From the IMG/VR virus record IMGVR_UViG_2531839130_000014: DNA of 36,967 nt. The stretch is one strand, 5' to 3'. Shown piece by piece: positions 4,729-36,967 of the stretch (the stretch's first letter is position 1; the number at the start of each line of letters is the position of its first letter). The position numbers and the translations under genes are program-made. Below the pieces are notes generated by a model. That model was not told the DNA's origin, searched no databases, and was given only the letters and a program-made list of their open reading frames with translations. This DNA comes from a virus. Taxonomy: Duplodnaviria > Heunggongvirae > Uroviricota > Caudoviricetes.

Positions 4729-4900
4729 TGTATTGATTCACTTGAAGTACGAAAAAAACCGGGAGGACATTGGATTATTCGGGATTTGGCGGGATTAGAT
4801 TTAGTGGGGCTTGCAAGCCTGTAGGACAGATTTTAGCCGTTACATCTTGAAACGCGAAAGATTGTTGGAAACAGCTTTTGATTCATTAAAGACACGAAAA
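4729..4900. repeat. Mu-type left end (attL) with transposase-binding end sites (L1 at about 4733-4755; further consensus-like sites near 4826-4850 and 4879-4900)
   Basis: Matches to the MuA end-site consensus TGNTTCAYTNNAARYRCGAAAR: TGATTCACTTGAAGTACGAAAAA at the terminus and TGATTCATTAAAGACACGAAAA at 4879-4900. The 5 bp flanking the end (4724-4728, GTCAA) fit the Mu target consensus N-Y-S-R-N. Confidence 0.8.
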
Positions 4901-8033: not shown

Positions 8034-8972
8034 ATGAATATTTCCGATATTCGCGCAGGACTGCGCACGCTTGTAGAAAATGAAGAAACCACCTTTAAAC
8101 AAATTGCTCTTGAGAGCGGACTTTCTACCGGAACTATCAGTAGTTTTATCAATGATAAGTACAACGGGGATAACGAGCGTGTTTCACAAATGCTGCAACG
8201 CTGGCTGGAAAAATATCATGCAGTTGCAGAACTACCTGAACCGCCCCGCTTTGTGGAAACGCAGACGGTAAAACAAATCTGGACAAGTATGCGTTTTGCC
8301 AGCCTGACTGAAAGTATTGCTGTTGTATGTGGCAATCCTGGTGTGGGCAAAACCGAAGCGGCCCGTGAATATCGCCGCACCAATAACAATGTCTGGATGA
8401 TCACCATTACGCCATCCTGCGCCAGTGTTCTGGAATGTCTTACTGAACTGGCGTTTGAGCTGGGAATGAATGACGCACCACGCCGTAAAGGGCCACTTTC
8501 CCGTGCCCTGCGACGTCGCCTTGAAGGTACACAGGGGCTGGTTATCATCGACGAAGCTGATCATCTTGGTGCCGAAGTTCTGGAAGAACTCCGCCTGTTA
8601 CAGGAATCAACCCGCACTGGCCTTGTGCTGATGGGAAATCACCGGGTTTATTCAAATATGACGGGGGGTAACAGAACGGTTGAATTTGCCCGTCTGTTTT
8701 CCCGTATTGCAAAGCGCACTGCAATTAATAAAACAAAAAAAGCCGATGTAAAAGCTATTGCGGATGCCTGGCAGATTAACGGCGAAAATGAACTGGAGTT
8801 ATTACAGCAGATTGCGCAGAAACCAGGTGCGCTTCGCATTCTGAATCATTCACTTCGCCTTGCCGCCATGACGGCTCACGGTAAAGGTGAGCGTGTTAAC
8901 GAAGATTATCTGCGTCAGGCTTTCCGTGAATTAGACCTGGACGTTGATATTTCAACGCTGCTGCGTAATTAA
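8034..8972 (+). CDS. B: MuB-type AAA+ ATPase, transposition target-DNA activator
   Basis: 312-aa ORF with Walker A GNPGVGKTEA and Walker B-like LVIIDEADHL. N-terminus MNISDIRAGLRTLVENEETTFKQIALESGLSTG matches recalled Mu B. Confidence 0.9.
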   Translation: MNISDIRAGLRTLVENEETTFKQIALESGLSTGTISSFINDKYNGDNERVSQMLQRWLEKYHAVAELPEPPRFVETQTVKQIWTSMRFASLTESIAVVCGNPGVGKTEAAREYRRTNNNVWMITITPSCASVLECLTELAFELGMNDAPRRKGPLSRALRRRLEGTQGLVIIDEADHLGAEVLEELRLLQESTRTGLVLMGNHRVYSNMTGGNRTVEFARLFSRIAKRTAINKTKKADVKAIADAWQINGENELELLQQIAQKPGALRILNHSLRLAAMTAHGKGERVNEDYLRQAFRELDLDVDISTLLRN

Positions 8973-14072: not shown

Positions 14073-14291
14073 ATGGGTAAAGGCTGGAATGCATCCTTTC
14101 ATCTTGGCAGACGTGAGCGGCTGCGTCAGGAGGTTTTGCGCCGTGTCGCCGGTGGGCCACGTCCTGCGCCCCGCGACTATACCGGTCATGATGGCACCCA
14201 CGGCAGTTATTACATGAAAGGCTGGCAGTCAGTTGATATGCCGGAAATTCTTCATCATTGCCTGCTTTACAGGGAGAAACATTATGTCTGA
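14073..14291 (+). CDS. Hypothetical middle-operon protein
   Basis: 72-aa ORF between mor and C. Confidence 0.4.
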   Translation: MGKGWNASFHLGRRERLRQEVLRRVAGGPRPAPRDYTGHDGTHGSYYMKGWQSVDMPEILHHCLLYREKHYV

Positions 14292-14646
14292 GCGTTCTGC
14301 TCGTCAGTGGCCTGATTTTTTATCGGTGGTATTACTGGCGCTGTTATTGTGGATAAGTCTGTTTTGTGGCTGGCGCGCGCTGATGTTTTGCTGTGCCTCG
14401 GTTTTCAGTGTTGCTTTATGTGTTGCCGGTGATTATCTGGATGCGCTGATAATGAGCTGCCGGGTGCCTGAACATTTTGCCCGGTTCGTCTGGCCTCTGA
14501 CCTGGCTGGGGGGGCTGTCCGGGCTGGGATTAGCCGTGATGGCAACGTCTCAACTGAAAACGGGTCCTGAGTATGTCATCTGGGCGCTGGCCGGATTGCT
14601 GACGTTCTGGCTCTCCTTTCGTTTTCGCGCTCGTCTGTTCGGGTAA
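14284..14646 (+). CDS. Hypothetical multi-pass membrane protein (middle operon)
   Basis: ATG at 14284 preceded by AGGGAG. Several hydrophobic helices (LSVVLLALLLWISLFCGW, VFSVALCVAG, WPLTWLGGLSGLGLAVMA, VIWALAGLLTFWLSF). Confidence 0.5.
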   Translation: MSERSARQWPDFLSVVLLALLLWISLFCGWRALMFCCASVFSVALCVAGDYLDALIMSCRVPEHFARFVWPLTWLGGLSGLGLAVMATSQLKTGPEYVIWALAGLLTFWLSFRFRARLFG

Positions 14647-14655
14647 AGGGGCACC

Positions 14656-14775
14656 ATGTACAGAAAATTCAGTGATGAATGTTTCGGGCCGTCCACGCTG
14701 ATTAATGCGATAAAAGTGATTGCCCTTGTGGTTCTGATAACCATCAGTGCCGTGGTGTATCTTTTTGTCTGTTAA
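14656..14775 (+). CDS. Possible 39-aa small membrane protein
   Basis: Short ORF MYRKFSDECFGPSTLINAIKVIALVVLITISAVVYLFVC with one hydrophobic helix, below the ORF-track size cutoff; found by reading the frame. Confidence 0.3.
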   Translation: MYRKFSDECFGPSTLINAIKVIALVVLITISAVVYLFVC

Positions 14776-14787
14776 CCGGGGGAAAAT

Positions 14788-15210
14788 ATGCAGCATGATT
14801 TATTTGAACACGATCCGGCAATTCGCCAGTTAATCGGGCATATTGATAACATCCCGGCCCCGGAACTGGAATCACGCTGGCCCCGTTCAGTGGTTGATCT
14901 GATTGATATTCTGGAAAACGAACTGAAACGCCAGAACGTCAGCAATCCCCGTGAGCTTGCCCGTAAACAGGCCGTTGCCCTGTCCTGTTTTCTGGGCGGG
15001 CGGCAGTTTTACATCCCCTGCGGCGATACGATCCTGACCGCGTTACGCGACGATTTGCTTTACTGCCAGTTCAATGGTCGTAACATGGAAGAACTGCGTC
15101 GCCAGTATCGCCTGTCCCAGCCGCAGATCTACCAGATTATTGCCCGCCAGAGAAAGCTGCATACACGACGTCATCAGCCTGATCTGTTCTCACCTGAAAG
15201 CCCAAAATAA
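14788..15210 (+). CDS. C: C, late-gene transcriptional activator (Mor/C family)
   Basis: 140-aa ORF (Mu C is 140 aa), paralogous to Mor, located before the lysis and morphogenesis genes. Confidence 0.85.
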   Translation: MQHDLFEHDPAIRQLIGHIDNIPAPELESRWPRSVVDLIDILENELKRQNVSNPRELARKQAVALSCFLGGRQFYIPCGDTILTALRDDLLYCQFNGRNMEELRRQYRLSQPQIYQIIARQRKLHTRRHQPDLFSPESPK

Positions 15211-15234
15211 CCGGCATCCTGCCGGTTATTTCCT
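15209..15234 (+). terminator. Putative terminator after C (end of middle transcript)
   Basis: Hairpin AACCGGCA-tcc-TGCCGGTT immediately after the stop, followed by a weak T-rich tract. Confidence 0.45.
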
Positions 15235-15301
15235 GTCACCATAATCCCGCACCTGCCATCTGATTTTTTAGACTGCCATCAGCGCATTTTTTCAGGGAAG
15301 C
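15235..15301 (+). promoter_or_regulatory. Expected C-dependent late promoter (Plys) region
   Basis: Intergenic spacer upstream of lys; assignment by Mu synteny only. Confidence 0.3.
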
Positions 15302-15820
15302 ATGATGGCGGGGATACCAAAAAAACTGAAAGCCGCACTGCTGGCGGCAACGATTGCCGGTGGCGGTGTGGGTGGTTATCAGGAAATGACCCGTCAGTCT
15401 CTGATCCATCTGGAAAATATCGCTTATATGCCTTACCGCGATATTGCCGGTGTGCTTACGGTCTGTGTGGGACATACCGGGCCGGATATCGAAATGCGCC
15501 GTTACAGCCATGCGGAGTGTATGGCTCTTCTCGACAGTGATTTAAAACCGGTTTATGCGGCAATCGATCGTCTTGTCAGGGTGCCGCTGACGCCATATCA
15601 GAAAACGGCGCTGGCAACGTTTATTTTCAACACCGGTGTTACCGCATTCAGTAAATCAACGCTGCTGAAAAAACTCAATGCCGGTGATTACGCCGGAGCG
15701 CGTGACCAGATGGCCCGCTGGGTGTTTGCCGCAGGCCATAAATGGAAAGGACTGATGAACCGTCGCGAAGTGGAAATGGCTATCTGGAATATCAGGGGGG
15801 CGGATGACCTTCGCCAGTAA
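15302..15820 (+). CDS. lys: SAR endolysin (T4-lysozyme-like glycosidase with N-terminal signal-anchor-release segment)
   Basis: 172-aa ORF with N-terminal weakly hydrophobic Gly/Ala-rich segment KAALLAATIAGGGVGGY followed by a lysozyme-like domain; first late gene as in Mu. Confidence 0.8.
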   Translation: MMAGIPKKLKAALLAATIAGGGVGGYQEMTRQSLIHLENIAYMPYRDIAGVLTVCVGHTGPDIEMRRYSHAECMALLDSDLKPVYAAIDRLVRVPLTPYQKTALATFIFNTGVTAFSKSTLLKKLNAGDYAGARDQMARWVFAAGHKWKGLMNRREVEMAIWNIRGADDLRQ

Positions 15821-16190: not shown

Positions 16191-16392
16191 TGCAGAACTG
16201 ACGGAAGCAACGCCCGTTCCGCCCATGCCACAGCCCCTGACGTGGGGAGCATCCCTTCTCTGGAATGCTGACCTGTTGATGGCGCTCGGGCAGTGCAACC
16301 GCGACAAGGCATCAGTCCGGGAACAGGAGACCCGAAGGAAAGAAATTTATGAACGAAGACCAGAACCGGGCGCTGGCGCTGCTGCTCGCTGA
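16051..16392 (+). CDS. Outer-membrane spanin subunit (o-spanin lipoprotein), overlapped architecture
   Basis: An ATG within the i-spanin gene in another frame gives MMQNKKLQPPLPVTIAALVLCLPLLLTGCGN: signal peptide plus lipobox LLTGC and a Pro-rich mature part, extending past the i-spanin stop. Confidence 0.5.
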   Translation: MMQNKKLQPPLPVTIAALVLCLPLLLTGCGNSKNAPVPSVVLQPETDAELTEATPVPPMPQPLTWGASLLWNADLLMALGQCNRDKASVREQETRRKEIYERRPEPGAGAAAR

Positions 16393-17723: not shown

Positions 17724-19379
17724 ATGAACACCAGAGAAAACAATCTTAAAGCCCTTCATGCGCCCCGCAAAATCAACCTGCGTGAGGAAGCCGGACTGCT
17801 CGGCGTGAATATCGTGACCGATATCGGGGAAGCACAGCCCCGCAATGAACCGGTTTTTCTGGGCTATCAGCGCCGCTGGTTTGAGGATGAAAGCCAGATT
17901 TGCATCGCTGAAAAATCCCGTCGTACCGGTCTGACATGGGCTGAAGCGGGCCGCAATGTCATGACGGCCGCAAAGCCGAAGCGTCGCGGTGGTCGCAACG
18001 TCTTTTATGTGGGTTCCCGTCAGGAAATGGCGCTGGAATACATCGCCGCCTGTGCCCTGTTTGCCCGCGCCTTTAACCAGCTGGCAAAGGCTGACGTCTG
18101 GGAGCAGACCTTCTGGGACAGCGACAAAAAAGAAGAAATCCTCACCTACATGATCCGCTTTCCGAACAGCGGATTTAAGATACAGGCGCTGTCAAGCCGT
18201 CCGTCTAACCTGCGTGGTTTGCAGGGGGACGTGGTGATTGATGAGGCGGCATTCCATGAAGCCCTGGACGAACTGCTGAAAGCGGCCTTTGCACTAAACA
18301 TGTGGGGTGCCAGCGTGCGCATCATATCGACACATAACGGCGTCGATAACCTGTTTAACCAGTACATTCAGGATGCGCGCGAGGGGCGCAAGGATTACAG
18401 CGTTCACCGCATCACGCTGGATGATGCCATCGCTGACGGGTTGTACCGGCGTATCTGTTACGTCACGAATCAGCCGTGGTCGCCGGAAGCGGAAAAAGCC
18501 TGGCGTGATGGCCTGTACCGGAATGCGCCGAATAAAGAGAGCGCCGACGAGGAATACGGCTGCATTCCTAAAAAATCCGGGGGCGCTTATCTGTCACGCG
18601 TGCTGATTGAAGCTGCCATGACACCCGCGCGGGATATCCCGGTTCTGCGTTTTGAAGCCCCGGACGATTTTGAATCGCTGACACCACAAATGCGCCACGG
18701 CATCGTTCAGGACTGGTGTGAACAGGAGCTGCTCCCGTTGCTCGATGCGCTGTCGCCGCTCAATAAACACGTACTGGGCGAAGACTTTGCACGCCGTGGC
18801 GACCTGACGGTGTTTGTGCCGCTTGCCATCACGCCTGACTTACGCAAACGCGAATGTTTCCGCGTGGAGCTGCGTAATGTGACCTATGACCAGCAGCGAC
18901 AAATCCTTTTATTCATTCTGTCCCGTTTGCCCCGTTTTACCGGCGCTGCATTTGATGCCACCGGTAACGGCGGTTATCTGGCAGAAGCCGCCCGTCTGAT
19001 TTATGGCCCGGAGATGATCGACTGTGTGAATCTGACCGCATCCTGGTATCAGGAGTGGATGCCCAAACTGAAAGGCGAGTTTGAGGCGCAGAACATCACG
19101 ATTGCCCGGCACCAGACCACACTTGATGACCTGCTCCACATCAAGGTGGACAAAGGTATTCCGCAGATTGATAAGGGGCGCACAAAAGATGAAGGTGGTA
19201 AAGGCCGACGACATGGCGACTTTGCCGTGGCGCTCTGTATGGCTGTCAGGGCGTCTTATATGAATGGTTTTGTTATCGACGAGGACAGCGTTCGTCCGCT
19301 ACCACCACGCCACCGTGGTGATGATGTTGATAACGATGATTTTGATGATTATCACCAGTTTGAACGAGGGGGCTGGTAA
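17724..19379 (+). CDS. Terminase large subunit (Mu gp28-like)
   Basis: About 551-aa ORF starting MNTRENNLKA with GAGAGG RBS, directly upstream of the portal gene. Confidence 0.75.
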   Translation: MNTRENNLKALHAPRKINLREEAGLLGVNIVTDIGEAQPRNEPVFLGYQRRWFEDESQICIAEKSRRTGLTWAEAGRNVMTAAKPKRRGGRNVFYVGSRQEMALEYIAACALFARAFNQLAKADVWEQTFWDSDKKEEILTYMIRFPNSGFKIQALSSRPSNLRGLQGDVVIDEAAFHEALDELLKAAFALNMWGASVRIISTHNGVDNLFNQYIQDAREGRKDYSVHRITLDDAIADGLYRRICYVTNQPWSPEAEKAWRDGLYRNAPNKESADEEYGCIPKKSGGAYLSRVLIEAAMTPARDIPVLRFEAPDDFESLTPQMRHGIVQDWCEQELLPLLDALSPLNKHVLGEDFARRGDLTVFVPLAITPDLRKRECFRVELRNVTYDQQRQILLFILSRLPRFTGAAFDATGNGGYLAEAARLIYGPEMIDCVNLTASWYQEWMPKLKGEFEAQNITIARHQTTLDDLLHIKVDKGIPQIDKGRTKDEGGKGRRHGDFAVALCMAVRASYMNGFVIDEDSVRPLPPRHRGDDVDNDDFDDYHQFERGGW

Positions 19380-20917: not shown

Positions 20918-22217
20918 TCTGGCGTATGCCGCACGCCTCCCGCCAAAGGAGGCTGTCGCGTATTTCCGCGCCAAAGGCTACAACATCACCTGGAACTGGT
21001 ACGAACAACTGGCAGACGCGCACGCCCGCGCCTTTACCGTTGCCAAAGCCACCCGGATGGATGTACTGACCACAATCCGTGAGGAAGTGGAGCGGGCTGT
21101 CAGTGAAGGTATCACCCGTGAGGAATTTACCCGCACACTGGCCCCCCGGCTGCAAAAACTCGGATGGTGGGGAAAACAAATCATCGTGGATACAGACGGA
21201 AACGCGAAGAAAATTGAGCTGGGCAGTCCGCGTCGTCTGGCAACCATTTATGACGTCAACACCCGTACAGCATATGCGGCGGGACGTTATGCGCAGATGA
21301 TGAACACGGCGGACCTGTATCCGTACTGGCAGTATGTCGCCGTTATGGACAGCAGAACGCGCCCGGAACATGCGCGGCTGCACAATGTGGTTTTCCGGTA
21401 TGACGACATTTTCTGGCAGACGCATTACCCGCCGAACGGCTGGCGCTGCCGCTGTCGCGTCCGGGCGCTGTCTGCGGCCCGCATGAAAGAACTGGGGCTA
21501 CAGGTCAGTTATGGTGCGTCATTCATGAATACCCGCGAAGTGGATGCCGGTACGGATGAAAGCACCGGCGAGATTTTCCGCACATCGTCAACCACGTTTG
21601 ACAACGGTCAGGTAAAAATGACGCCGGATGTGGGCTGGTCATATAACCCCGGTTCGGCAGCATTTGGTACGGATCAGGCACTGATTCGAAAACTGGTGGA
21701 AATTCACGACGCGCAGCTGCGTGAGCAGGTTGTGCAGACGCTGAATAACAGCCGGGAGCGTCAGCTTGCTTTTTCCCTCTGGCTTAAACGCCTGGCAGGA
21801 TCACGTCAGACCGGTCATGAAATCCGGGCGCTGGGTTTTATGACGGGATCCGTGGCTGAAGCCGTACATCAGCGCACCGGGAATATGCCAGCCCGTCTGC
21901 TTGTGATGAACGGGAAAAGTCTGGCGACCACTGCTGATGCCGCCCTGAAACCGGAAGATTTACAGCGTCTGCCGTCGCTGATGGCAAAACCACAGGCGGT
22001 ATTGTGGGACAGGGAGAACCACCAGTTGCTGTATGTTGTGGCAACCCGCGACGGCACTGCAAAAGTTGTGGTCAGAACATCGCAGGCTGTCAGCAAACAG
22101 AATGACCGGGCGGATGTGCTGGTCAGTATCAGCCGCGTATCTGCACAGTCGCTTGAAGCCGCGATTGCTGACGGGATGATTGACGTACTGGAGGGGCATG
22201 TGGAGGTGAATAAGTGA
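20898..22217 (+). CDS. Head morphogenesis protein (Mu F-like minor head protein)
   Basis: About 439-aa ORF after the portal gene, start taken at the in-frame ATG at 20898. Confidence 0.75.
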   Translation: MPQQTIDLAYAARLPPKEAVAYFRAKGYNITWNWYEQLADAHARAFTVAKATRMDVLTTIREEVERAVSEGITREEFTRTLAPRLQKLGWWGKQIIVDTDGNAKKIELGSPRRLATIYDVNTRTAYAAGRYAQMMNTADLYPYWQYVAVMDSRTRPEHARLHNVVFRYDDIFWQTHYPPNGWRCRCRVRALSAARMKELGLQVSYGASFMNTREVDAGTDESTGEIFRTSSTTFDNGQVKMTPDVGWSYNPGSAAFGTDQALIRKLVEIHDAQLREQVVQTLNNSRERQLAFSLWLKRLAGSRQTGHEIRALGFMTGSVAEAVHQRTGNMPARLLVMNGKSLATTADAALKPEDLQRLPSLMAKPQAVLWDRENHQLLYVVATRDGTAKVVVRTSQAVSKQNDRADVLVSISRVSAQSLEAAIADGMIDVLEGHVEVNK

Positions 22218-22684
22218 GTCTTGATATGAACGTTGCCGTGGATGTGCGACGTATTCAGCTTGCGCTGGATGAACTGGGAACCGTCACACGTGACCGCGCC
22301 ATTCCCCGTGTGATGTCTGCGGCGCTGCTGTCATCCACGGAACAGGCATTTGAACGGCAGGCAGATCCGGATACAGGGAAAGGCTGGGAAGCATGGAGCG
22401 ATTCGTGGCAGGCATGGCGTCAGGATCATGGTTTTGTTCCGGGCAGTATTCTTACCCTGCATGGCGATCTGGCACGCAGTATTACCACCGATTATGGACA
22501 GGATTATGCCCTGATTGGTTCGCCAAAAATTTATGCTGCCATTCATCAGTGGGGCGGTACACCCGATATGGCACCCCGCCCGGCAGGCGTTCCTGCGCGT
22601 CCTTATATGGGGCTGGATAAGACCGGGGAACAGGAAATTTTTGATGCCATCAGAAAACGCGTCAGCGCCGCTCTGAGGCAATAA
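22214..22684 (+). CDS. Virion morphogenesis protein (Mu G-like)
   Basis: 156-aa ORF after the F-like gene; GTG start preceded by GGAGGTG. Confidence 0.65.
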   Translation: MSLDMNVAVDVRRIQLALDELGTVTRDRAIPRVMSAALLSSTEQAFERQADPDTGKGWEAWSDSWQAWRQDHGFVPGSILTLHGDLARSITTDYGQDYALIGSPKIYAAIHQWGGTPDMAPRPAGVPARPYMGLDKTGEQEIFDAIRKRVSAALRQ

Positions 22685-22880
22685 ACAGAATCAGGCATAA
22701 AATCAGCTGCACAGATTTTTTAAAACGCGCCACGGGATTTTTAAACCGGTATTTAACGGTGTATGAATCCCGTTTTATCTTCCTTCCACTTTCTTTCTCC
22801 AGTACTCAAATAGCATAACCCCAGATTTTCCCGCACCTCCCGCAAACTGACTGCTCACAAACCATGATGAGCAGCAGGAC
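22685..22880. promoter_or_regulatory. G-I intergenic region: expected C-dependent late promoter (PI) and candidate central strong gyrase site
   Basis: 196-bp AT-rich non-coding gap, the longest in the late region, lying 17.96-18.15 kb from the left end at 4729. Confidence 0.35.
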
Positions 22881-23966
22881 ATGAAAAAACACGCGATTGG
22901 CATTGCCGCACTGAGTGCGCTGTCCATTGACGATGACGGCTGGTGCCAGCTATTGCCTGCCGGTCATTTCAGTGCCCGTGATGGTCGCCCGTTTGATGTG
23001 ACAGGTGGTCAGGGGTGGTTCATCGACGGTGAGATTGCCGGGCGTCTGGTTGAAGGCGTTCGCGCGCTCAACCAGGACGTACTGATTGATTACGAGCATA
23101 ACCAGCTACGTAAGGACAAAGGATTACCCCCGGAACAACTCGTCGCGGCTGGCTGGTTTAACGCCGATGAAATGCAGTGGCGTGAAGGTGAAGGATTATT
23201 TATCCACCCACGCTGGACGGCGGCGGCGCAGCAGCGCATCGATGACGGCGAATTTGGTTATCTCTCTGCGGTTTTTCCGTATGACACCGCCACCGGTGCG
23301 GTGCTGCAAATCCGCCTTGCTGCGCTGACCAATGACCCCGGTGCCACCGGCATGAAAAAGCTGACCGCACTGGCGGCAGACCTTCCCGACATCCTTCAAC
23401 AGGAGAACAAACCCATGAATGAAACGCTGCGCAAGCTGCTTGCGCGTCTTGGAGTGACGGTCCCCGAAAATGCAGACATCACCGATGAACAGGCCAGTGC
23501 GGCCCTGAGTGCGCTTGATGCACTCGAAACAGATGCCGGAAAAGTGGCGTCGTTATCCGCCGAACTGGAAAAGGCACAGAAAGCCGCCGTTGACCTGACG
23601 AAATACGTCCCGGTGGAAAGCTACAACGCCCTGCGTGATGAACTGGCACAGGCGACTGCACAAAGCGCCGCAGCCAGCCTGAGCGCCGTTCTGGACAAGG
23701 CGGAACAGGAAGGCCGCATTTTCAAAAGCGAACGCACTTACCTGGAACAGCTTGGCGGTCAGATTGGCGTGGCGGCACTGTCGGCACAGCTTGAGGAAAA
23801 ACAGCCCATCGCTGCGTTATCTGCCATGCAGACCACCACAGCGAAAAAACCGTCACAGGAAAAACCGGCGGTGGCGGTGCTGTCTGCTGATGAACAGGCA
23901 GCAGTGAAGGCGCTCGGCATTACTGAGGCTGAGTATCTGAAAATGAAACAGGAACAAGAAAAATGA
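22881..23966 (+). CDS. Head maturation protease / scaffold protein (Mu I-like)
   Basis: 361-aa ORF with an N-terminal protease-like region and a C-terminal Ala/Gln-rich helical scaffold-like region, upstream of the major head gene. Confidence 0.75.
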   Translation: MKKHAIGIAALSALSIDDDGWCQLLPAGHFSARDGRPFDVTGGQGWFIDGEIAGRLVEGVRALNQDVLIDYEHNQLRKDKGLPPEQLVAAGWFNADEMQWREGEGLFIHPRWTAAAQQRIDDGEFGYLSAVFPYDTATGAVLQIRLAALTNDPGATGMKKLTALAADLPDILQQENKPMNETLRKLLARLGVTVPENADITDEQASAALSALDALETDAGKVASLSAELEKAQKAAVDLTKYVPVESYNALRDELAQATAQSAAASLSAVLDKAEQEGRIFKSERTYLEQLGGQIGVAALSAQLEEKQPIAALSAMQTTTAKKPSQEKPAVAVLSADEQAAVKALGITEAEYLKMKQEQEK

Positions 23967-25779: not shown

Positions 25780-26327
25780 TGCTGGAAGAAACCGAAGCCG
25801 CACTGCTGGCGCGCGTTCGTGAGTTGTTTGGGGCAACCCTGCGGCAGGTGGAACCCCTTACCGGCACATGGACTAACGAGGATGTACACCGTCTCTTTCT
25901 GGCCCCGCCATCGGTATTTCTGGCATGGATGGGCTGTGGTGAGGGGCGTACGCGTCGGGAAGTTGAAAGTCGCTGGGCATTTTTTGTCGTGGCGGAGTTG
26001 CTGAACGGGGAACCGGTAAACCGGCCCGGTATTTATCAGATTGTGGAGCGACTGATTGCCGGTGTTAACGGTCAGACGTTTGGCCAGACCACCGGGATGA
26101 GACTGACGCAGGTCAGAAATCTTTGTGACGACAACCGTATCAATGCCGGCGTGGTGCTTTACGGCGTTCTGTTGAGTGGCACTACCCCGCTGCCGTCCGT
26201 GGTGGACATGGATTCGCTGGATGATTACGAGCGTCACTGGCAGACCTGGAAACTCCCGGCCGAAACCCCGGAATTTGCCGCACATATCAATGTGAATCAG
26301 GAAAAGGATAATGATGCTGAAAATTAA
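25779..26327 (+). CDS. Hypothetical head-tail joining / tail completion protein (Mu gp37-like)
   Basis: 182-aa ORF in conserved position before the sheath gene. Confidence 0.55.
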   Translation: MLEETEAALLARVRELFGATLRQVEPLTGTWTNEDVHRLFLAPPSVFLAWMGCGEGRTRREVESRWAFFVVAELLNGEPVNRPGIYQIVERLIAGVNGQTFGQTTGMRLTQVRNLCDDNRINAGVVLYGVLLSGTTPLPSVVDMDSLDDYERHWQTWKLPAETPEFAAHINVNQEKDNDAEN

Positions 26328-26541
26328 ACCCGCAGAGGGAAAAACCATCCGTGACCCGCTCACGATGGAATTACTGGCGCCTGAGGGAGAAGAAAAGCCC
26401 CGTAACAGTTTCTGGATACGTCGCCTTGTAGCCGGTGATGTGGTTGAAGTCGGGAGCACCGAAAACACTGATGTGGTTGAAGTCGGGAGCACCGAAAACA
26501 CGGCGGATGATACCGACGCTGCGCTGAAAAAAACGGAGTAA
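26311..26541 (+). CDS. Hypothetical small acidic protein (Mu gp38 position) containing an internal 11-aa tandem duplication
   Basis: 76-aa ORF; sequence ...GDVVEVGSTENTDVVEVGSTENTADD... Confidence 0.55.
   Translation: MMLKIKPAEGKTIRDPLTMELLAPEGEEKPRNSFWIRRLVAGDVVEVGSTENTDVVEVGSTENTADDTDAALKKTE
26437..26502. repeat. Two tandem copies of a 33-bp direct repeat (GATGTGGTTGAAGTCGGGAGCACCGAAAACAC-N) inside a coding region
   Basis: Copies at 26437-26469 and 26470-26502 differ only at the last base; in-frame, encoding DVVEVGSTENT twice. Confidence 0.9.
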
Positions 26542-26547
26542 ATCGAA

Positions 26548-28047
26548 ATGAGCGATATTTCATTTAACGCGATCCCGCCAGATGTTCGCGTTCCTCTGGC
26601 GTATATCGAATTTGATAACAGTAATGCCGTCAGCGGAACACCGGCCCCCCGTCAGCGCGTGCTGATGTTCGGGCAAAGCAATAAGGGGGCCAGTGCGGCA
26701 CCAGACGTGCCTGTCCGTATCCGTTCCGGCTCACAGGCCAGTGCGGCGTTTGGTCAGGGTTCCATGCTGGCACTGATGGCAGATGCATTCCTGAAAGCTA
26801 ACCGCGTGGCGGAGCTGTGGTGTATTCCGCAGGCGAAAAACCCCGGTAATACTATCTCTAAAACTACTGTCGGTTTAATCACACTGTCAGGAACGGCAAC
26901 CGAAAACGGCTCGCTTGTGACTTACATTGCCGGTCAGCGACTGGCGGTATCCGTCGCAGCAGGTACCAAGGGATCGAAGCTGGCTGGCCTGCTGACTGAC
27001 CGAATCAACGGTCATCCTGATTTGCCGGTGAAGGCAGTATTGCTCTCAACCACGCCGGATGATGCCGGCGCTACAGATATAGTTCTGACTGCAAAATTTA
27101 CGGGTGCATTATCTGCCGTGGATGTGCGCTGGAACTATTACGCGGGTGAAACCACCCCTTACGGGATTATCACGGCATTCAAAGCCGAATCCCGGAAATA
27201 CATCAACCCGGATATCAGCGCAAGTATCGCGGGAATGGGCGATCTGCAATACAAATATATTGTGATGCCCTATACCGATGAACCGAACCTGAATCTGTTA
27301 CGCACTGAATTGCAGGAACGCTGGGGACCGGTCAGTCAGGCTGATGGCTTTGCCGTGACAGTGCTGTCCGGCACGTATGGGGATATTTCCACGTTTGGTG
27401 TCAGACGTAATGACCATCTGATTTCCTGTATGGGGATTGCCGGTGCACCGGAACCGTCATATCTGTACGCCGCCACCCTGTGTGCCGTTGCCAGCCAGGC
27501 GCTTTCCATCGACCCGGCGCGTCCACTCCAGACGCTGACGTTGCCCGGAAGAATGCCGCCTGCGGTGGGGGATCGTTTCACCTGGTCAGAACGTAATGCG
27601 CTGCTGTTTGACGGCATCTCCACGTTTAACGTGAATGATGGTGGTGAAATGCAGATTGAACGCATGATCACGATGTACCGCACGAACAAGTACGGTGACA
27701 GCGATCCGTCTTATCTGAACGTGAATACCATCGCCACGCTGAGTTATCTGCGTTATTCGCTGCGAACCCGCATCACGCAGAAATTCCCGAACCACAAGCT
27801 GGCAAGTGATGGCACCCGCTTTGCCACCGGTCAGGCCGTGGTGACGCCATCCGTGATCAAAACGGAGCTGCTGGCACTGTTTGAAGAATGGGAAAACGCC
27901 GGACTGGTCGAGGATTTCGACACGTTCAAAGAGGAGCTGTATGTGGCACGTAACAAGGACGACAAAGACCGTCTTGATGTGCTGTGCGGCCCGAATCTGA
28001 TTAACCAGTTCCGCATTTTCGCGGCACAAGTTCAGTTCATTCTGTAA
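26548..28047 (+). CDS. L: Contractile tail sheath protein (Mu L-like)
   Basis: 499-aa ORF immediately upstream of a 118-aa tube-like gene; size and position fit a myovirus sheath. Confidence 0.8.
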
Positions 28048-28056
28048 GGAGCATTT

Positions 28057-28413
28057 ATGGCTGGAAATCAGCGTCAGGGGGTGGCGTTCATCCGTGTCAA
28101 TGGCATGGAGCTTGAATCAATGGAAGGTGCCTCCTTCACGCCTTCCGGCACCACCCGTGAAGAAGTGACCGGCTCGCGGGTTTATGGCTGGAAAGGTAAA
28201 CCACGTGCCGCAAAAGTGGAATGCAAAATTCCGGGGGGCGGTCCCATCGGGCTGGATGAAATTATCGACTGGGAAAACATCACCGTCGAATTCCAGGCTG
28301 ATACCGGTGAAACCTGGATGCTGGCGAATGCCTGGCAGGCGGATGAACCGAAAAACGACGGCGGCGAAATTTCGCTGGTACTGACGGCAAAAAAAAGCAA
28401 ACGCATTGCATAA
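28057..28413 (+). CDS. M: Tail tube protein (Mu M-like)
   Basis: 118-aa ORF following the sheath gene. Confidence 0.75.
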   Translation: MAGNQRQGVAFIRVNGMELESMEGASFTPSGTTREEVTGSRVYGWKGKPRAAKVECKIPGGGPIGLDEIIDWENITVEFQADTGETWMLANAWQADEPKNDGGEISLVLTAKKSKRIA

Positions 28414-28422
28414 GGGGAAACA

Positions 28423-28857
28423 ATGGACGAAATGAATTTAAGTCCTGAAGCACAGGAACTGCGTGACAGTATTGTGGCTGAGCTTCAGTCCGGTGGCCTG
28501 AAACTGAAAGACGGCCTGGCGTTCGGCACCGGTGACGAGACTGAAATGCAGTATGACGTGACACTGCGTGAACTGACCGCAGGCGATCTGATTGATGCCC
28601 AGGCGGCGGCTGAAAAGCTGGTAATGAGCAAGGAAGGCCCGGTGCTGGTCAGTTCCCCGTCCCGGATGGGACTGGAAATGCTGCGCCGACAGATTGCCAG
28701 CGTGGGCTGCATCAAAGGCCCGTTATCGCTGGCGCTGATGCGCAAGCTGTCCGTCGATGACTTCCAGCGTCTGTCGCTGGCCACAGAGATGCACGACATG
28801 GCTGTGGCGGCATCGCTGACGCAAGAACGGGGGCGAGTGGCTGCGGTGCCGGAATGA
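28423..28857 (+). CDS. Tail assembly chaperone (Mu gp41 position)
   Basis: 144-aa acidic ORF between the tube and tape-measure genes, followed by a 144-bp gap containing a short open alternate frame. Confidence 0.55.
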   Translation: MDEMNLSPEAQELRDSIVAELQSGGLKLKDGLAFGTGDETEMQYDVTLRELTAGDLIDAQAAAEKLVMSKEGPVLVSSPSRMGLEMLRRQIASVGCIKGPLSLALMRKLSVDDFQRLSLATEMHDMAVAASLTQERGRVAAVPE

Positions 28858-29001
28858 TATTGAGAAAGCGGCGACAGCGATTGGCGTTATTCTGAAAAGT
28901 GGCCCGGAATGGGCCTTGTCTCTCCCGCTGTCCCGCTTTTTCCGGCACTGCCAGCAGGCTAAAACCCTCTCTCAATATCACCGTTAAATCAGGAAATCTC
29001 T

Positions 29002-31077
29002 ATGACCGGGAAACGCTTAAAGGCGTCTGTCATTATTGATCTTAATGGCAATCTTTCCCGGCGTTCCCGCGAGTATTCGAACCAGATAAACGCCCTGTCC
29101 CGTAGCGGACAAAGTTCCCTTCGTGCCCTGCGTATGGAGGTTGTGCGCGTTTCTGGTGCCATTGACAGAATGGGTTCACTGTCAACCCGTACATTCCGAA
29201 TGCTGTCAGCCGGGGCGCTGGGTATCGCTGGCGTGGGTTACACCGCCAATAAACTGTTTATTGGTGCCGCCGCCCAGCGTGAGCAGCAGATTATCGCCAT
29301 GAACTCGCTGTATCACGGCGATAAGGCCAGAGCACAGGCCATGATGGCGTGGGCGAAGCAGAACGCAAAAGAAACCACCTGGGGGCTGGGCGGCGTTCTG
29401 CAGGAAATCCGCACATCAACGGCGTTTGGCATGACTGACGCCCAGGTAAAACAGTTCATCACCATGCTACAGAATCAGGGCGCGATGCATGGCTGGGATT
29501 TACCCACCGCGCAGGGGGCTTCGTTACAGTTCAAACAGATGTTTGCCCGCCAGCAAATCACGGCGGCGGACGCCAACCTGCTGACCGGTTACGGTATCAA
29601 CGTTTACAAGGTGCTGGCAGATGCAACGGGTAAGGATGAGAAAAAAATCCGTAAGCTGGGTGAAAAAGGCAAGCTGGGCAAGAAAGCCATTCTGACGGTA
29701 TTCCGGACCCTGCTGGAGCAGTCAGAAGGCGCACAGGCGGCTGCCATGAACTCCTGGGACGGGATGATGGCCCAGATGGAGGGCAACCTGCTTGAGTTTC
29801 GCACGAAGGTGGCAAACAGCGGCCCCTTTGAAGAAATCAAGAACGAGATGCGCCGGGTGCTTAACTGGCACGATGCGGCGGATAAATCCGGGGAGCTGGA
29901 CGCACTGGCAGAAAACATTGGTCAGAAATTCCTGACCACGTTCAGAAAGGTAAAAATCGCGGCGCAGGAATTATGGCGCTGGCTGAAACCGGGTAAAGAT
30001 GCGCTGGCATGGGTTGACCAGAATATTGTCAGCCTGAAAAAACTGGCTGCTGTTCTGGTGTCTGTCTGGCTTGCCAATAAAGCCCTGAGAGCAGGCTGGG
30101 CCGTGGCAAAACCCTCATGGCAGGTTGCCAGTTATCCGTTTAAAACCGGGCGTCGTATGTGGCGCTGGATGCGAAACCGCAAACGTGGGCAGGCAGGTCT
30201 GCCGGTCCCGGATGCCATGACGTCTGAGACGCTGTTGCAGGGTATCGGCATTCAGCGTGTGTTTGTCACTAACTGGCCTCACGGGTTCGGCGGTTACGGA
30301 AGCGGTGGCCGTGGTGGTCGCACCCGGAAAGGCAAAGGCATGACGCCCCTGTTACCCCGCCAGCCGTTATTGCTGTCCGGGCCACAGCCGCTGGCATTAC
30401 CTGCACCACGCCCTGTTCTGGCATTACCCCCACCCGGCGTACCGGTAACGGCACGGCCTGCACCATTACCTTTACCCGGTAAATCCGGTCTTCTGAGCAG
30501 GCTTGCAGGCAGTGCTGCCGGGCAACTGGTTACGGGAGCGGTCGGAAAGCTGGCTGATGCCGGGCGTGCCGCTGGCGGGTGGTTTTCCGGTATCGGAAAC
30601 AAACTTGCAGGCAGTGCGATCGGTCGGGTTGTGACAAAAGGTGCCGGGGCGCTGGGCTGGATGGGGAAAGGCGCGGGGCGTGCGTTGTCACGTCTGGGTG
30701 GCCCGGTAATGGGGGCACTCCAGCTTGCCCCCGTCCTGATGGATGAGCAGGCGTCAACCCATGAAAAAGCAGGCGCAATTGGCAGTACAGCCGGTGCATG
30801 GCTCGGCGGTGCCGTTGGCAGCCTTGCCGGACCGCTGGGTACGGTTGCCGGTGCCACGCTGGGCAGTGTCGCCGGGGAGTATCTGGGCGGTTTTGTAACC
30901 GACCTGTATCAGAAGTGGACGGCCACGGATAAGGAACCGCAGGAGCAAAAAGTGAATGCGGAAGCCTCGCTGCGCGTCGAACTTGGCGAGGGGTTACGTC
31001 TGACCAGTTCCCGCGTCACCGAGGATGGTATGGGGCTGAATATTTACGCGGGCGATAACTACATTACAGGCTGGTAA
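29002..31077 (+). CDS. Tail tape measure protein
   Basis: 691-aa ORF with helical N-terminal part and a Gly/Ala-rich C-terminal part ([26 protein letters not shown]...), downstream of the chaperone. Confidence 0.8.
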
Positions 31078-31081
31078 AACC

Positions 31082-32569
31082 ATGTTTGAAGATGCTTTAA
31101 ATGCCGTTAATGCTGTCCGGGATAAAACCGGTGGAGGCAGGAAAACAACCGGCAAAGGCACGTTCCGTAACGTGCCGTTTCTCGTCATCGAGGAGCAAAA
31201 ACAGGCTGGCGGACGTCGTCTGGTTAAACGTGAGTACCCGTTACGTGATACCGGCGGTGTCAACGACCTGGGGAAAAAGCTTCGCTCCCGCACATTCAGC
31301 ATCTGCATTCTGAACAGCAACGCAGAGACTGCCAGAGATGAAGCGGGTGCGCTGATGGATGCTCTTGATGCTCCGGGTAGCGGTGAGCTGGTACATCCTG
31401 ATTTCGGCACTGTGGCCGTCATGGTGGATTCATGGGAATGCCGCACTAAAGCGGATGAACTGAATTATTACGCGTTCACCGTTACCGTTTATCCGTCGTT
31501 GCAGGATACTGCCCCGGACGCAGAGACAGACACCAGTGTAGCCGTACCGGCACAGTCCGTTGCTGTAACCGGTTCTCTGGGAGATACGCTGTCCTCTGTC
31601 TGGCAGACCGTAAAAGATGGCACTGCGGCGGCAACCGCCGTGATGGAAGCTGTAACCGGTGTCATCGATGATATCAGTGATGCGGTGGACAATCTGGGGG
31701 TTACGCAGACTGTCAGCGGTCTGATGGGATCGCTTTCTGCGATGAAAGGCTCTGTGACCGGCCTGATTAACCAGCCTGCCATGCTGGCCTCCTCGCTGAT
31801 GGGGGCGCTGTCCGGCGTTTCATCGTTATGCGATACCCGGACAGCATTTTCCACCTGGAACCGTCTGGCGCAGCGGTTCGAACGTCGCCATGCCGCCACC
31901 GCAGGCAGACAGGGGGCAATCACAACCTCGTACAACAGTCCGGTTGCAGAAAAAAATATTGCCACACTGAACTACGTCATGCTGGCAGCGGCGCAGACAT
32001 ACCGGGCAGAAGCTGCCAGCCAGGCACTGACTGCGGCACTGGATTTCAGTCGCCGGATGGATAATGCCGCCCGTGCACCTGTACTGGATGCCCCGTCCAC
32101 CACAACCGGCACAGCCAGCGGGGCCAGCAGCACATCTGCTACCGTCACACAGGGACAGTTACAGTTAACTGCCATAACCCCGGACGGCGGCTTTTCACAG
32201 GTATCCTTTTCAGACAGTGGTACAGCCACGCCCCCGGTATTTGAAAGTGTGTCCGATATCGGAAAAACAGCCGCCATGCTGGGGGCTGCGCTGGATACCG
32301 TCATTCTGACGGCATCTGAGCAGGGCTTTTCGACAGACAGCGTTCAGCTTACGCAACTGCGTCTGCTGGTTGTTGCCGACCTGGAAAAACGCGGGCTGCA
32401 ACTGGCGGGTAGTGAAACGCACCGTCTGCCGGAGACGATGCCTGCAATGGTGGCCCTGTACCGTTACACAGGAAACAGCCGGAACTGGCAACGGCTGGCC
32501 CGCAGGAACGGTATCAGCAACCCGTTGTTTGTTCCCGGTGGTGTCAGTATTGAGGTGATTAATGAGTAA
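31082..32569 (+). CDS. N: DNA circularisation protein N-like tail protein
   Basis: 495-aa ORF right after the tape measure gene, starting [39 protein letters not shown], as recalled for Mu N family proteins. Confidence 0.7.
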
Positions 32570-33695
32570 TACCGTCACGCTGCGAACGGATGGCAGGCTT
32601 TTTACCGGCTGGACGTCAGTCTCTGTCACCCGCTCGATTGAATCCGTAGCCGGATATTTTGAGCTGGGGGTGAACGTGCCACCGGGCACGGATTTATCCG
32701 GGCTGGCTCCGGGGAAGAAGTTCACGCTCGAAATCGGGGGGCAGATTGTCTGCACCGGTTATATCGATTCACGGCGACGCCAGATGACCGCTGACAGTAT
32801 GAAAATCACTGTCGCCGGACGTGACAAAACGGCTGACCTGATTGACTGTGCTGCCGTTTACAGTGGCGGACAGTGGAAAAACCGCACACTGGAGCAGATT
32901 GCGCGTGACCTGTGCGCCCCTTATGGCGTTACCGTTCGCTGGGAGCTGTCAGACAAGGAAAGCGCAGCGTCGTTTCCGTCTTTTACGCTTGACCATTCAG
33001 AAACGGTTTACGAAGCGCTGGTGCGGGCCTCCCGCGCACGTGGTGTACTGATGACCAGCAATGCCGCCGGAGAGCTGGTATTCAGCCGGGCTGCCAGTAC
33101 GGTCACTGATGAGCTGATCCTCGGGAAAAATCTGCTGACGGTGGATTTTGACGAAGATTTCCGTGACCGGTTCAGCGAATACATTGTCAAGGGTTATGCC
33201 CGCGCAAACGGCGCTGAGGGTGATGATATTGATGCGAAAAGTATCGTCTCCCGGAAAGGGACCGCCACTGACAGTGATGTAACCCGTTACAGACCGATGA
33301 TCATCATTGCCGACAGCAAAATTACGGCGAAGGATGCACAGGCCCGCGCCCTGCGTGAGCAACGCCGCAGACTGGCAAAATCCATCACCTTTGAGGCTGA
33401 AATTGACGGATGGACTCGCAAGGACGGGCAACTCTGGATGCCAAACCTGCTGGTCACTATTGATGCCTCGAAATATGCCATCAAAACCACGGAATTACTG
33501 GTCAGCAAAGTCACCCTGATACTGAATGACCAGGACGGGCTGAAAACCCGCGTCAGCCTTGCACCACGCGAAGGCTTTCTGGTGCCGGTTGAAAGCGACC
33601 GCAAATCCAGAGGGGATGGTAATGATGGCGTTGATGCGCTGGTTGAAGATTATTATCGCAGACACCCGGAGAAAACGCCGCCGTGGAAAGAGTAA
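32562..33695 (+). CDS. P: Tail / baseplate hub protein (Mu P-like)
   Basis: 377-aa ORF overlapping N by 8 nt. Confidence 0.7.
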
Positions 33696-33706
33696 ATGAT
33701 TCCGCC

Positions 33707-34276
33707 ATGAACCGCCTGCTGACACCGCTGATGCGTCGTGTGCGTCTGATGCTTGCGCGTGCCGTTGTTAACGTGATTAACGACGGGCGAAAGGTTCAGA
33801 ACCTGCAGGTCGGTCTGCTGGATGATGAGGAATCTGATGAAGTGGAGCGCCTGCAAAATTACGGGCATTTCAGCGTTCCTCTGCCGGGCGCAGAGGCGCT
33901 GATTGCCTGTGTGGGTGCACAACGTGATCAGGGGATTGCCGTTGTGGTGGAAGACCGCCGCTACCGCCCGACAAATCTTGAACCGGGTGATGCAGGCATT
34001 TACCACCACGAGGGGCATCGTATCAGGCTGACAAAGGACGGGCGCTGCATCATTACCTGTAAAACGGTTGAGATTTACGCTGATGAAAGCATGACCGTTG
34101 ATACACCCAGAACCACGTTTACCGGCGACGTTGAGATCCAGAAAGGTCTGGGCGTTAAAGGTAAAAGCCAGTTCGACAGCAATATTACTGCCCCGGATGC
34201 CATCATCAATGGCAAATCGACGGATAAGCATATCCACCGTGGCGACAGCGGCGGAACCACAGGGCCGATGCAATGA
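33707..34276 (+). CDS. Baseplate assembly / spike protein (gpV-like; Mu gp45 position)
   Basis: About 189-aa ORF, start taken at the ATG at 33707. Confidence 0.65.
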   Translation: MNRLLTPLMRRVRLMLARAVVNVINDGRKVQNLQVGLLDDEESDEVERLQNYGHFSVPLPGAEALIACVGAQRDQGIAVVVEDRRYRPTNLEPGDAGIYHHEGHRIRLTKDGRCIITCKTVEIYADESMTVDTPRTTFTGDVEIQKGLGVKGKSQFDSNITAPDAIINGKSTDKHIHRGDSGGTTGPMQ

Positions 34277-34710
34277 CCGATTTAGCCATTATCTGGACGA
34301 ACGGACGCGGCGATATTGCACAGGATGGCATTGATATGCTGACCGACGACAGTCTGACGACCGATGTGACAATCTCCCTGTTTACCGACCGGCGCGCGCT
34401 GGATTCTGACACGCTGCCGGATGGTTCAGATGATCGCCGTGGATGGTGGGGTGACAGTTACCGCGACCGCCCCATCGGTTCGCGGTTGTGGCTGTTATCA
34501 CGTGAAAAAGCCACACCGGATACGCTGGAACGCGCCAGAGGGTATGCCGAAGAGGCGCTGGAATGGCTGAAAACAGCGGGCCGGGTGAGTGCGATTAACG
34601 TCAGAGCGGAACAGTTACATCAGGGCTGGTTATACCTCTACATTGCACTGACATTACCGGATGGTTCCGTTATTCCTTATGAGTTTAAAGCAGCATTTAA
34701 CGGGGTTTAA
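34273..34710 (+). CDS. Baseplate protein (GP46-like; gpW-type position)
   Basis: 145-aa ORF overlapping its neighbours, in the baseplate module. Confidence 0.65.
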   Translation: MTDLAIIWTNGRGDIAQDGIDMLTDDSLTTDVTISLFTDRRALDSDTLPDGSDDRRGWWGDSYRDRPIGSRLWLLSREKATPDTLERARGYAEEALEWLKTAGRVSAINVRAEQLHQGWLYLYIALTLPDGSVIPYEFKAAFNGV

Positions 34711-35793
34711 ATGGCTTATTCACCACCGACATTATCATCGCTGATTGCCCGTACAGAACAGAATATTGAACAGCGCCTGCCGGGTAGCTGGCCTCAGGCC
34801 CGTGAAAAAACGCTGAGTGCCATTGCTTATGCTCAGGCGGGCCTTGCTGCCGGTTTTCACGAGCATATTTCATGGGTTGGACGGCAGATTATCCCGTCGA
34901 CAGCAGATGAAGATGAGTTGCTGGAGCACTGCCGGTTCTGGGGCGTGCGCCGCAAACAGGCGACAGCCGCCAGCGGCCCGCTGACTGTCACCACATCGGC
35001 AGCGACCACCATTCCTGCCGGTACACGCTGGCAGCGTGCTGATGGTGTGGTTTACAGCCTGGCTGATGCCATTGTGATTGACCGTGCAGGAACGACGGAA
35101 ATTACCGTTACCGCACTGGCTGCCGGTGAGGCAGGAAATACCGGTGAGAATACCCTTTTAACGTTGATCACCCCGGTTGCCAGTGTTGTTTCCGATGCCA
35201 TCACTGTAAAAGGGTTTTCCGGTGGAGCTGATATTGAGAGTGCAGCGGAGCTGCTGTCACGGCTGGAATATCGTGTCCAGTATCCTCCGTTCGGCGGTAA
35301 TCAGTTTGATTATGTTCGCTGGGCACGTGAAGTCAGCGGCGTTACCCGTGCCTGGTCTTTTCCGACATGGAAAGGCGGTGGCACAGTCGGGGTGACGTTT
35401 GTTATGGATAACCGGAGCAATATTTTTCCACAACCGGCAGATGTGGAACGCGTGGCGGATTATATCGCCGGTCATACTGACCCGATAACCGGCCTGATTG
35501 TCGGACAGCCTGATGGTGTAAATGTCACGGTATTTGCACCAAAGGCAAAGCCGGTAAATCCACGGATTTATATATCGCCGAAGACAGCCGAACTGAAACA
35601 GGCTATTACTCACGCCATTAATACCATGTTTTTTAATGAGGTGACGCCGGGCGGTGCACTTGCCCCCTCCCGTATTATCCGTGCGGTGGCAGGTGTTACC
35701 GGTCTGGATGATTTTGAAGTGCGTTTCCCGACAGACATCCAGCGTTCGGAGAATACGGAACTGTTAACACCGGGGACAATTGAATGGCTGTAA
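34711..35793 (+). CDS. Baseplate J-like protein (Mu gp47 position)
   Basis: 360-aa ORF in conserved position after the gpW-like gene. Confidence 0.75.
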   Translation: MAYSPPTLSSLIARTEQNIEQRLPGSWPQAREKTLSAIAYAQAGLAAGFHEHISWVGRQIIPSTADEDELLEHCRFWGVRRKQATAASGPLTVTTSAATTIPAGTRWQRADGVVYSLADAIVIDRAGTTEITVTALAAGEAGNTGENTLLTLITPVASVVSDAITVKGFSGGADIESAAELLSRLEYRVQYPPFGGNQFDYVRWAREVSGVTRAWSFPTWKGGGTVGVTFVMDNRSNIFPQPADVERVADYIAGHTDPITGLIVGQPDGVNVTVFAPKAKPVNPRIYISPKTAELKQAITHAINTMFFNEVTPGGALAPSRIIRAVAGVTGLDDFEVRFPTDIQRSENTELLTPGTIEWL

Positions 35794-36326
35794 CACCCTG
35801 GCAGACGGCCTTTCTGCAATTACTGCCGTCAGGGCTTGCCTGGAATAAAAGCCCCGACAGCAAATTATCTGCGCTGGCGCAGGCCATCAGCGACGTGATT
35901 ACCACTGCGGCGGATGATGCGCGGCAAATGCTGCGGGAGCGTTTCCCGTCCACATCCCGCTGGTATCTGGGTGAGTGGGAATCATTTCTGGGGTTGCCGG
36001 ACTGTACCAGCGAAAACGGCACCCTGTCCGAACGCCGGCGGGCTGCCGCGAATAAAATGCGTATGACCGGCAATCTGAGTCGGCGCTTTTATGAATGGCT
36101 GGCTGCGCAGTACGGTTTTACCGTCAGGCTGACGGATTCCACAGAAGGCCAGTGGGTTACGCAGGTCAATATTTACGGTATTAAAAATTATCGCAACGCA
36201 ACGGTGCTGGATAATGTTCTGACGCCGTTACGTGTTTATGAATCGGGTGCGCTGGAATGTTTACTGGAGAAATATAAACCCGCGCATCAGATTTATAAAT
36301 TTGTTTACCATGACGGAGATAACTAA
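35784..36326 (+). CDS. Tail protein (Mu gp48-like, baseplate wedge / tail fibre adaptor)
   Basis: 180-aa ORF between the baseplate J-like gene and the tail fibre gene. Confidence 0.65.
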   Translation: MAVTPWQTAFLQLLPSGLAWNKSPDSKLSALAQAISDVITTAADDARQMLRERFPSTSRWYLGEWESFLGLPDCTSENGTLSERRRAAANKMRMTGNLSRRFYEWLAAQYGFTVRLTDSTEGQWVTQVNIYGIKNYRNATVLDNVLTPLRVYESGALECLLEKYKPAHQIYKFVYHDGDN

Positions 36327-36967
36327 TGTTTTATATTGATAACGACAGCGGCGTAACCGTCATGCCGCCCGTATCCGCCCAGCGTAGTGCTATCGTTCGC
36401 TGGTTTTCAGAAGGTGACGGGAATAATGCTATCACATGGCCCGGCATGGACTGGTTTAATATTGTGCAGGCGGAGTTATTAAACACGCTGAAAGAAGCCG
36501 GTATTCAACCGGATAAAACAAAATTAAACCAGCTTGCACTGTCCATTAAAGCCATTATGAGCAATAACGCGCTGCTGATAAAAAATAACCTCAGCGAAAT
36601 TAAAATTGCCGGGGCATCAGCACAGCGTACAGCACGTGAAAATCTGGATATCTGGGATGCCAGCCTGAACAAAAAAGGCCTCGTTCAGCTAACCAGTGCC
36701 ACTGACAGCCCCAGTGAAACGCTGGCAGCCACCGCAAAAGCGGTGAAAATTGCGATGGATAATGCCAATGCCCGTCTGGCAAAAGACCGGAACGGAGCAG
36801 ATATTCCCAATAAGCCGCTGTTTATCCAAAACCTTGGTTTACAGGAAACGGTAAATCAGGCTTCTGGCGCATTACAGAAAAACCAGAACGGCGCAGATAT
36901 TCCGGGAAAAGATACCTTCACCAAAAATATTGGTGCCTGCCGCGCATATAGCGCATGGCTGAATATT
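36326..36967 (+). CDS. Tail fibre protein, N-terminal part (partial; runs off the window end)
   Basis: ATG at 36326 with the frame open to the last base (read by hand). Contains repeated fibre-type motifs (KDRNGADIPNKPLFIQNLGL and KNQNGADIPGKDTFTKNIG). Confidence 0.65.
   Translation, partial: MFYIDNDSGVTVMPPVSAQRSAIVRWFSEGDGNNAITWPGMDWFNIVQAELLNTLKEAGIQPDKTKLNQLALSIKAIMSNNALLIKNNLSEIKIAGASAQRTARENLDIWDASLNKKGLVQLTSATDSPSETLAATAKAVKIAMDNANARLAKDRNGADIPNKPLFIQNLGLQETVNQASGALQKNQNGADIPGKDTFTKNIGACRAYSAWLNI

Follow-up and report, generated by a model that had tools for sequence, protein, structure and literature searches.

Among strong gyrase sites (SGSs), that of bacteriophage Mu has been studied most, and biochemical and cryo-EM work on gyrase uses it as a standard substrate. 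The Mu site has been divided into a left arm (positions -65 to -26), which can be dispensed with or replaced, a G-segment core (-25 to +25) and a right arm (+26 to +85), which is essential over its first 40 nt (PMC6463007). Gyrase cuts the Mu site at 5'-A/AATCA and, on the other strand, at 5'-T/GATTT, and both of the structural papers that give these positions state that they agree with earlier biochemical and Topo-Seq mapping (PMC9886550, PMC11626157). The right arm wraps the C-terminal domain of GyrA and presents the T-segment (PMC6463007, PMC11626157, PMC13284261). Deletion of the SGS from Mu delays replication by about 100 min, a central position is optimal, and loss or displacement of the site cuts end-proximity 30-fold or 3-7-fold, respectively. 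The Mu site works only in the Mu sequence context, and the gyrase sites of pSC101 par and pBR322 are reported not to be full substitutes for it. These plasmid SGSs and the Topo-Seq gyrase motif, in which a central cleavage region is flanked by G+C/A+T variation phased at 10.5 bp, are elements of about 130 bp of the same kind as the Mu site, and their likeness to it is one of kind only. When scored with the Topo-Seq motif, the SGS has the top score in the Mu genome and the third in an E. coli genome that carries it.

The stretch of DNA analyzed here (the window, 36,967 nucleotides in all; IMG/VR record IMGVR_UViG_2531839130_000014) carries a Mu/D108-type prophage of E. coli, the prophage part of which is co-linear with D108, Mu and SfMu across the window at 95-97.5% identity. 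It encodes a Mu-type repressor (5068-5592, minus strand), transposase A (6007-7995) and B (8034-8972). On the basis of sequence comparison, we consider it highly probable that the gap between the homologues of Mu genes G and I in this prophage is the central SGS of a Mu/D108-type transposable element, and that the site shares the G-I region with a terminator and the C-dependent late promoter PI. Since the feature was known before, the present work is an annotation of the Mu SGS and no discovery, and its importance is small beyond correct annotation.

The G-I gap and the anatomy of the site

The preliminary description of this DNA had placed a candidate strong gyrase site in positions 22685-22880, a 196-bp non-coding gap between the Mu G and Mu I homologues. 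The features of the gap and its surroundings are listed here, with positions relative to the predicted gyrase dyad in parentheses.

22214..22684, + strand: gene G homologue (virion morphogenesis / neck protein), 156 aa; PF05069, E 7.8e-42; co-linear with Mu gp31/G
About 22638-22787 (~150 bp), no strand assigned: whole predicted SGS, anatomy transferred from PMC6463007
22638..22677 (-65 to -26), no strand assigned: predicted SGS left arm, coordinates transferred from PMC6463007; reported to be dispensable
22678..22727 (-25 to +25), no strand assigned: predicted SGS core (gate or G segment); 22708 is its one mismatch to Mu
22701..22704, no strand assigned: 4-nt stagger AATC between the two predicted scissile bonds; cut sequences from PMC9886550 and PMC11626157
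22708 (+6), no strand assigned: C to T relative to Mu and D108, from alignments; creates the palindrome CAGCTG
22728..22787 (+26 to +85), no strand assigned: predicted SGS right arm, with phased A/T blocks; same as Mu over 22709-22785
22732..22781, + strand: intrinsic-terminator-like hairpin after G, arms 22732-22751 and 22754-22773, then TTTTATCTT; overlaps the SGS right arm
22802..22868, + strand: late promoter PI of the I-Z-T head operon; Mu annotation 17977-18043, 100% identical
22869-22871: ribosome-binding site of I, Mu annotation transferred
22881..23966, + strand: gene I homologue (head maturation protease/scaffold; Mu-like prophage I protein), 361 aa; PF10123, E 3.4e-97; co-linear with Mu gp32/I

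The gap is real and is flanked by G and I as described earlier, with the PF05069 gene ending at 22684 and the PF10123 gene starting at 22881. It is also, as had been claimed, the largest in the late region; when the gaps between co-linear genes are ranked from the ORF list, the next two measure 158 bp (16191-16348) and 144 bp (28858-29001). The earlier characterization of the sequence as AT-rich with T-tracts holds only in a modest sense, the gap having 56% A+T vs 48% for the window, a value at the 98.7th percentile when 196-bp windows of the late region are compared and at the 89th when all are; T-tracts occur at 22716-22721, 22738-22742, 22752-22754 and 22773-22776.

An alignment to the Mu SGS had been proposed as a check on the candidate. 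When it was made against Mu AF083977 17860-18055 (a window coordinate is the Mu coordinate + 4825), 194 of the 196 bases of the gap were the same, and the features that Mu records annotate there, namely a gyrase cut site, a terminator, the late promoter PI and the I ribosome-binding site, fell at homologous positions. The two differences are a C to T at 22708 (+6) and a T to C at 22786 (+84), where D108 also has C, and they are the only mismatches to Mu in the whole of the predicted SGS (22638-22787); to the right of the dyad the match is complete from +7 to +83. The Mu SGS itself (AF083977 about 17813-17962) has the same cleavage sequence, right arm, G and I flanks, terminator and PI. The candidate gyrase site is therefore borne out by its near-identity to Mu, its context and its position.

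A wider segment (22600-22960) used as a BLAST query against phage records aligned over its full length with 13 Muvirus genomes at 97.8-99.2% identity, including Mu at 99.2% over 361 bases. D108, SfMu, Mu_3F6, the Yersinia vB_YpM phages and Mu-like prophages of E. coli are all within the same 97.8-99.4% range over these 361 bases. The SGS region is carried by 44 of 5,426 complete E. coli genomes, and 13 loci with the SGS core pattern were found in IMG/VR; a search with the 34-mer of the core gave zero matches in 185,579 species-representative genomes.

The cleavage sequence with its 4-nt stagger, CATAAAATCAGC, is intact at 22696-22707, and gyrase would be expected to cut the top strand of the window at 22700/22701 and its bottom strand at 22704/22705, around a dyad at 22702/22703 (CATAA/AATC/AGC). 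The 'gyrase cut site' in the GenBank records of Mu (AF083977/NC_000929, 17879..17880) corresponds to window 22704/22705 and represents the bottom-strand bond only. The top strand is cut 4 nt further left, and a naive reading of the GenBank feature would misplace the 4-nt stagger. Taking 17879..17880 as the top-strand cut, which would put 22708 inside the stagger and change it from AGCC to AGCT, is ruled out by the published cut sequences (PMC9886550, PMC11626157). With the GenBank feature assigned to the bottom strand and AATC as the stagger, the change at 22708 is located at +6, outside the stagger.

These coordinates require some adjustment of the interval that had been proposed for the gyrase site. 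The interval begins 18 bp to the left of the dyad, and the predicted site begins earlier still, within G; the final ~47 bp of the G homologue (about 22638-22684) hold the SGS left arm and the beginning of the core. Within the interval the gyrase assignment stands for the left ~100 bp, while the right third (22802-22868) is the PI promoter.

Two compositional measures were obtained in addition to the alignments. Among 60-bp windows, the right arm reaches the 97th percentile for A/T periodicity at 10-11 bp, and the local maximum reaches the 99.3rd. Against a Topo-Seq-like template, which is a crude G+C/A+T pattern drawn from the published 133-bp consensus and not the real weight matrix, the site takes rank 279 among 73,670 placements across the window (top 0.4%, z about 2.7), which counts neither for nor against an SGS.

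One relative has an ORF annotated across this stretch, and the conservation of the gap might on that account be attributed to coding for a small protein. The ORF is 'gene 31.5' of D108 (42 aa; CDS 17914-18042), the sole ORF annotated here in a relative, and it corresponds to window 22691-22819. Where D108 has the ATG start codon, the window and Mu both read ATA, and the ORF is accordingly not conserved; moreover, the ORF list has no + strand ORF of at least 50 aa inside the gap, and the Mu records have no gene there. We give almost no credence to a coding explanation, and the annotation of D108 gene 31.5 across the gyrase site is probably spurious. A search of the gap region with Rfam gave zero family matches.

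The terminator and the late promoter

The right arm of the predicted SGS is overlapped by a hairpin that lies 48 nt past the G stop codon. As RNA, the segment 22732-22773 folds with -19.8 kcal/mol (z -3.8; 0 of 200 shuffles were as stable) and is followed by UUUUAUCUU. The TransTermHP terminator of Mu (17908-17953) maps to window 22733-22778, and the hairpin is the terminator that is annotated in Mu after G, where it ends the preceding late operon. A simple terminator scan did not call the hairpin, which has an interrupted long stem and a loop above the limit of the scan.

To the right of the hairpin is PI, which had also been expected in the G-I gap and is present there as a fully identical copy of the late promoter annotated in Mu. 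For the annotation of this mapped late promoter, the Mu record cites PMID 2522923. A promoter scan found no sigma-70-like promoter in the gap region, as would be expected since PI is activator-dependent (predicted to be C-dependent). The PI leader also contains a perfect 7-bp inverted repeat, CTGCTCA-N10-TGAGCAG (22851-22874), just 5' of the Shine-Dalgarno sequence of gene I; the related prophage of E. coli SE11 has one mismatch in an arm of this repeat.

Position within the prophage

The left terminus of the prophage is seen directly in the window.

4729..4780, + strand: prophage left end (attL terminus), with TGTATTGATTCACTTGAAGTACG at 4729; base 1 of D108 aligns here

The Mu left terminus TGTATTGATTCACTTGAAG starts at 4729, and the gap measured from this base spans 17,957-18,152 bp, in agreement with the 17.96-18.15 kb given in the preliminary description. 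The prophage sits in recE of the Rac prophage of E. coli, with its junction at 4728/4729 preceded by the 5 bp GTCAA. To its left, all on the minus strand, are intR (1-1236), recT (1992-3044) and a remnant of recE (3056-4741), and this left flank is 97.9% identical to Rac of E. coli A30. The prophage is a mosaic. Its left end is D108-like, and so is its repressor (the alignment with D108 starts at base 1, that with Mu only at 1519); the SGS left core has the Mu haplotype at -16, -8 and -4, the positions at which the D108-side left core differs. An identical repressor occurs in 4,190 blocks of the sequence collection.

Where the window stops, 32.2 kb into the prophage, the right end has not yet been reached. 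The right end was sought in related contigs by way of gp48 (35784-36326), the last complete gene in the window. Two of these contigs, L026 and L028, are 100% identical to window 25784-36967 (11,184 overlapping bases), and five related contigs with differing host flanks part from each other right after ...GAGCCGGCTCA, which points to a right terminus at window-equivalent 41,439, or 4,472 bp beyond the end of the window. From these relatives, the prophage would be 36,711 bp long, with the dyad 17,974 bp from its left end and 18,737 bp from its right end, at a fraction of 0.490. The central position that had been predicted for the gap is thereby upheld through L026 and L028. As the window itself is without a right end, centrality rests on relatives with other insertion sites; searches by way of the repressor or gp48 gave no contig with the recE flank or the GTCAA target of the prophage's own insertion. 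For comparison, Mu has its site at 0.487, D108 at 0.481 and the complete prophage of E. coli elppa5 at 0.485.

The right parts of the two identical contigs differ from Mu in several respects. In 14166-15656 of these contigs (window-equivalent about 39,949-41,439), the com and mom genes are absent, and there are a 148-aa ORF without a Pfam match and a 171-aa invertase-like gene; the right terminus reads ...GAGCCGGCTCA vs ...GCGCCGCTTCA in Mu. The prophage in the window differs from Mu by its D108-type left end and repressor and, as judged from its identical relatives, by a right end without com and mom.

The known functions of the Mu site, carried over from published Mu work by near-identity, provide a scheme for what the site might do in this prophage. 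Host DNA gyrase would bind about 150 bp centered on the dyad, cleave at A/AATCA and T/GATTT, and wrap the phased, A/T-rich right arm (22728-22787) around a GyrA C-terminal domain so as to present the T-segment. Supercoiling of high processivity would follow, and from a site at mid-position a plectoneme might grow with the SGS at its apex and, at its base, the two prophage ends, which are about 37 kb apart. Ends joined in this way could proceed to transposase-mediated synapsis and to prompt replicative transposition after induction, and the SGS might also keep the prophage as a separate supercoiled domain. An intact central SGS would mean that the prophage keeps the cis-element for efficient end synapsis. 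Sequence identity, gene context and position are the parts of this case that are seen directly, and it is from the near-identity to the Mu SGS that we infer gyrase binding, cleavage and biological effect.

The scheme presupposes a prophage in which the site still has a role, and it might be argued instead that the site is intact but a relic in a defective prophage. The missing com and mom genes and altered right terminus of the relatives that are identical to the right part of the window would be compatible with such a state, as would the frameshifted genes in several related prophages. In the window, however, transposase A, B, the repressor and the head and tail genes are all full-length ORFs, and the occurrence of this type of prophage at many insertion sites indicates recent transposition. 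We regard a relic as unlikely.

Natural variation and the base at +6

Variation around the site was examined in 24 retrieved copies that represent 15 distinct Mu-family sequences. Among the latter, 11 sites are variable in -65..-1 vs 2 in +1..+65, where the invariance of +7 to +27 is by construction, that segment having served as an anchor (the IMG/VR loci were fetched with the pattern -7 to +27). The left arm varies at 6 of its 40 positions in the 15 distinct sequences, and the stretch of the right arm from +26 to +65 varies at 1 of 40 among the relatives. Variation that is mostly to the left of the dyad fits the published findings of a dispensable left arm and an essential right arm, but the conservation of the right arm could also come from the overlapping terminator. 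The E. coli SE11 prophage, which is 79% identical, retains GATAAAATCA; its T-tracts are spaced by 21 and 12 bp vs 22 and 14, and the bases between them are changed. When the SE11 counterpart is folded, the hairpin is found to be kept alongside the T-tract spacing, and the terminator and the right arm are not separated by this comparison.

Three of the 15 distinct sequences have a T at 22708, namely that shared by the window and IMG/VR locus L016, that of E. coli elppa5 and that of E. coli 2014C-3075, and this T is found on three different left-core haplotypes. Such a distribution marks the base as a standing natural polymorphism. The elppa5 copy belongs to a complete prophage of 36,588 bp that is flanked by a 5-bp target duplication (ATGGG). 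Position 22708 lies in the gate segment and adjoins the +7G/+8C step, at which gyrase reportedly kinks the DNA (PMC6463007).

The location of the changed base beside the +7/+8 bend, together with the stable terminator hairpin and PI that fill much of the gap, could be taken to mean that the gap is a mere spacer with a terminator and a promoter, its gyrase site having been weakened or lost through the C-to-T change at +6. We consider this most unlikely. All of the other bases from -65 to +83 match Mu, the essentials reported for the Mu site are the right arm and the core and not the +6 base, and the presence of the T allele on three left-core haplotypes, including a complete prophage with a target duplication, argues that the change is tolerated.

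A subtler role for the +6 base can be imagined, in that the natural C/T difference might tune the strength of the site. If this were true, Mu-type prophages would hold alleles suited to the gyrase activity or supercoiling set-points of their hosts. We think such tuning doubtful, and the precedent for it is in laboratory mutations: the nuB mutations, a few bases away, tune the strength of the site, with nuB1 at +3 and nuB103 at -3 according to the legend of Fig. 7 in PMC6463007. The nuB1 base given in that legend conflicts with the GenBank sequence of Mu. The alleles that occur naturally at +6 and within the left core make up a small panel on which the influence of gate-segment sequence on gyrase could be studied.

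An allelic difference is also present in material used for the Mu site in the laboratory. The 133-bp 'Mu SGS' of Sutormin et al. 2018 came from plasmid pMP1000, which was also the source of the Mu217 cryo-EM DNA. Relative to the GenBank sequence of Mu, the pMP1000 fragment has a G to C at +4 (window-equivalent 22706), and it is probably not wild type but a nuB allele.
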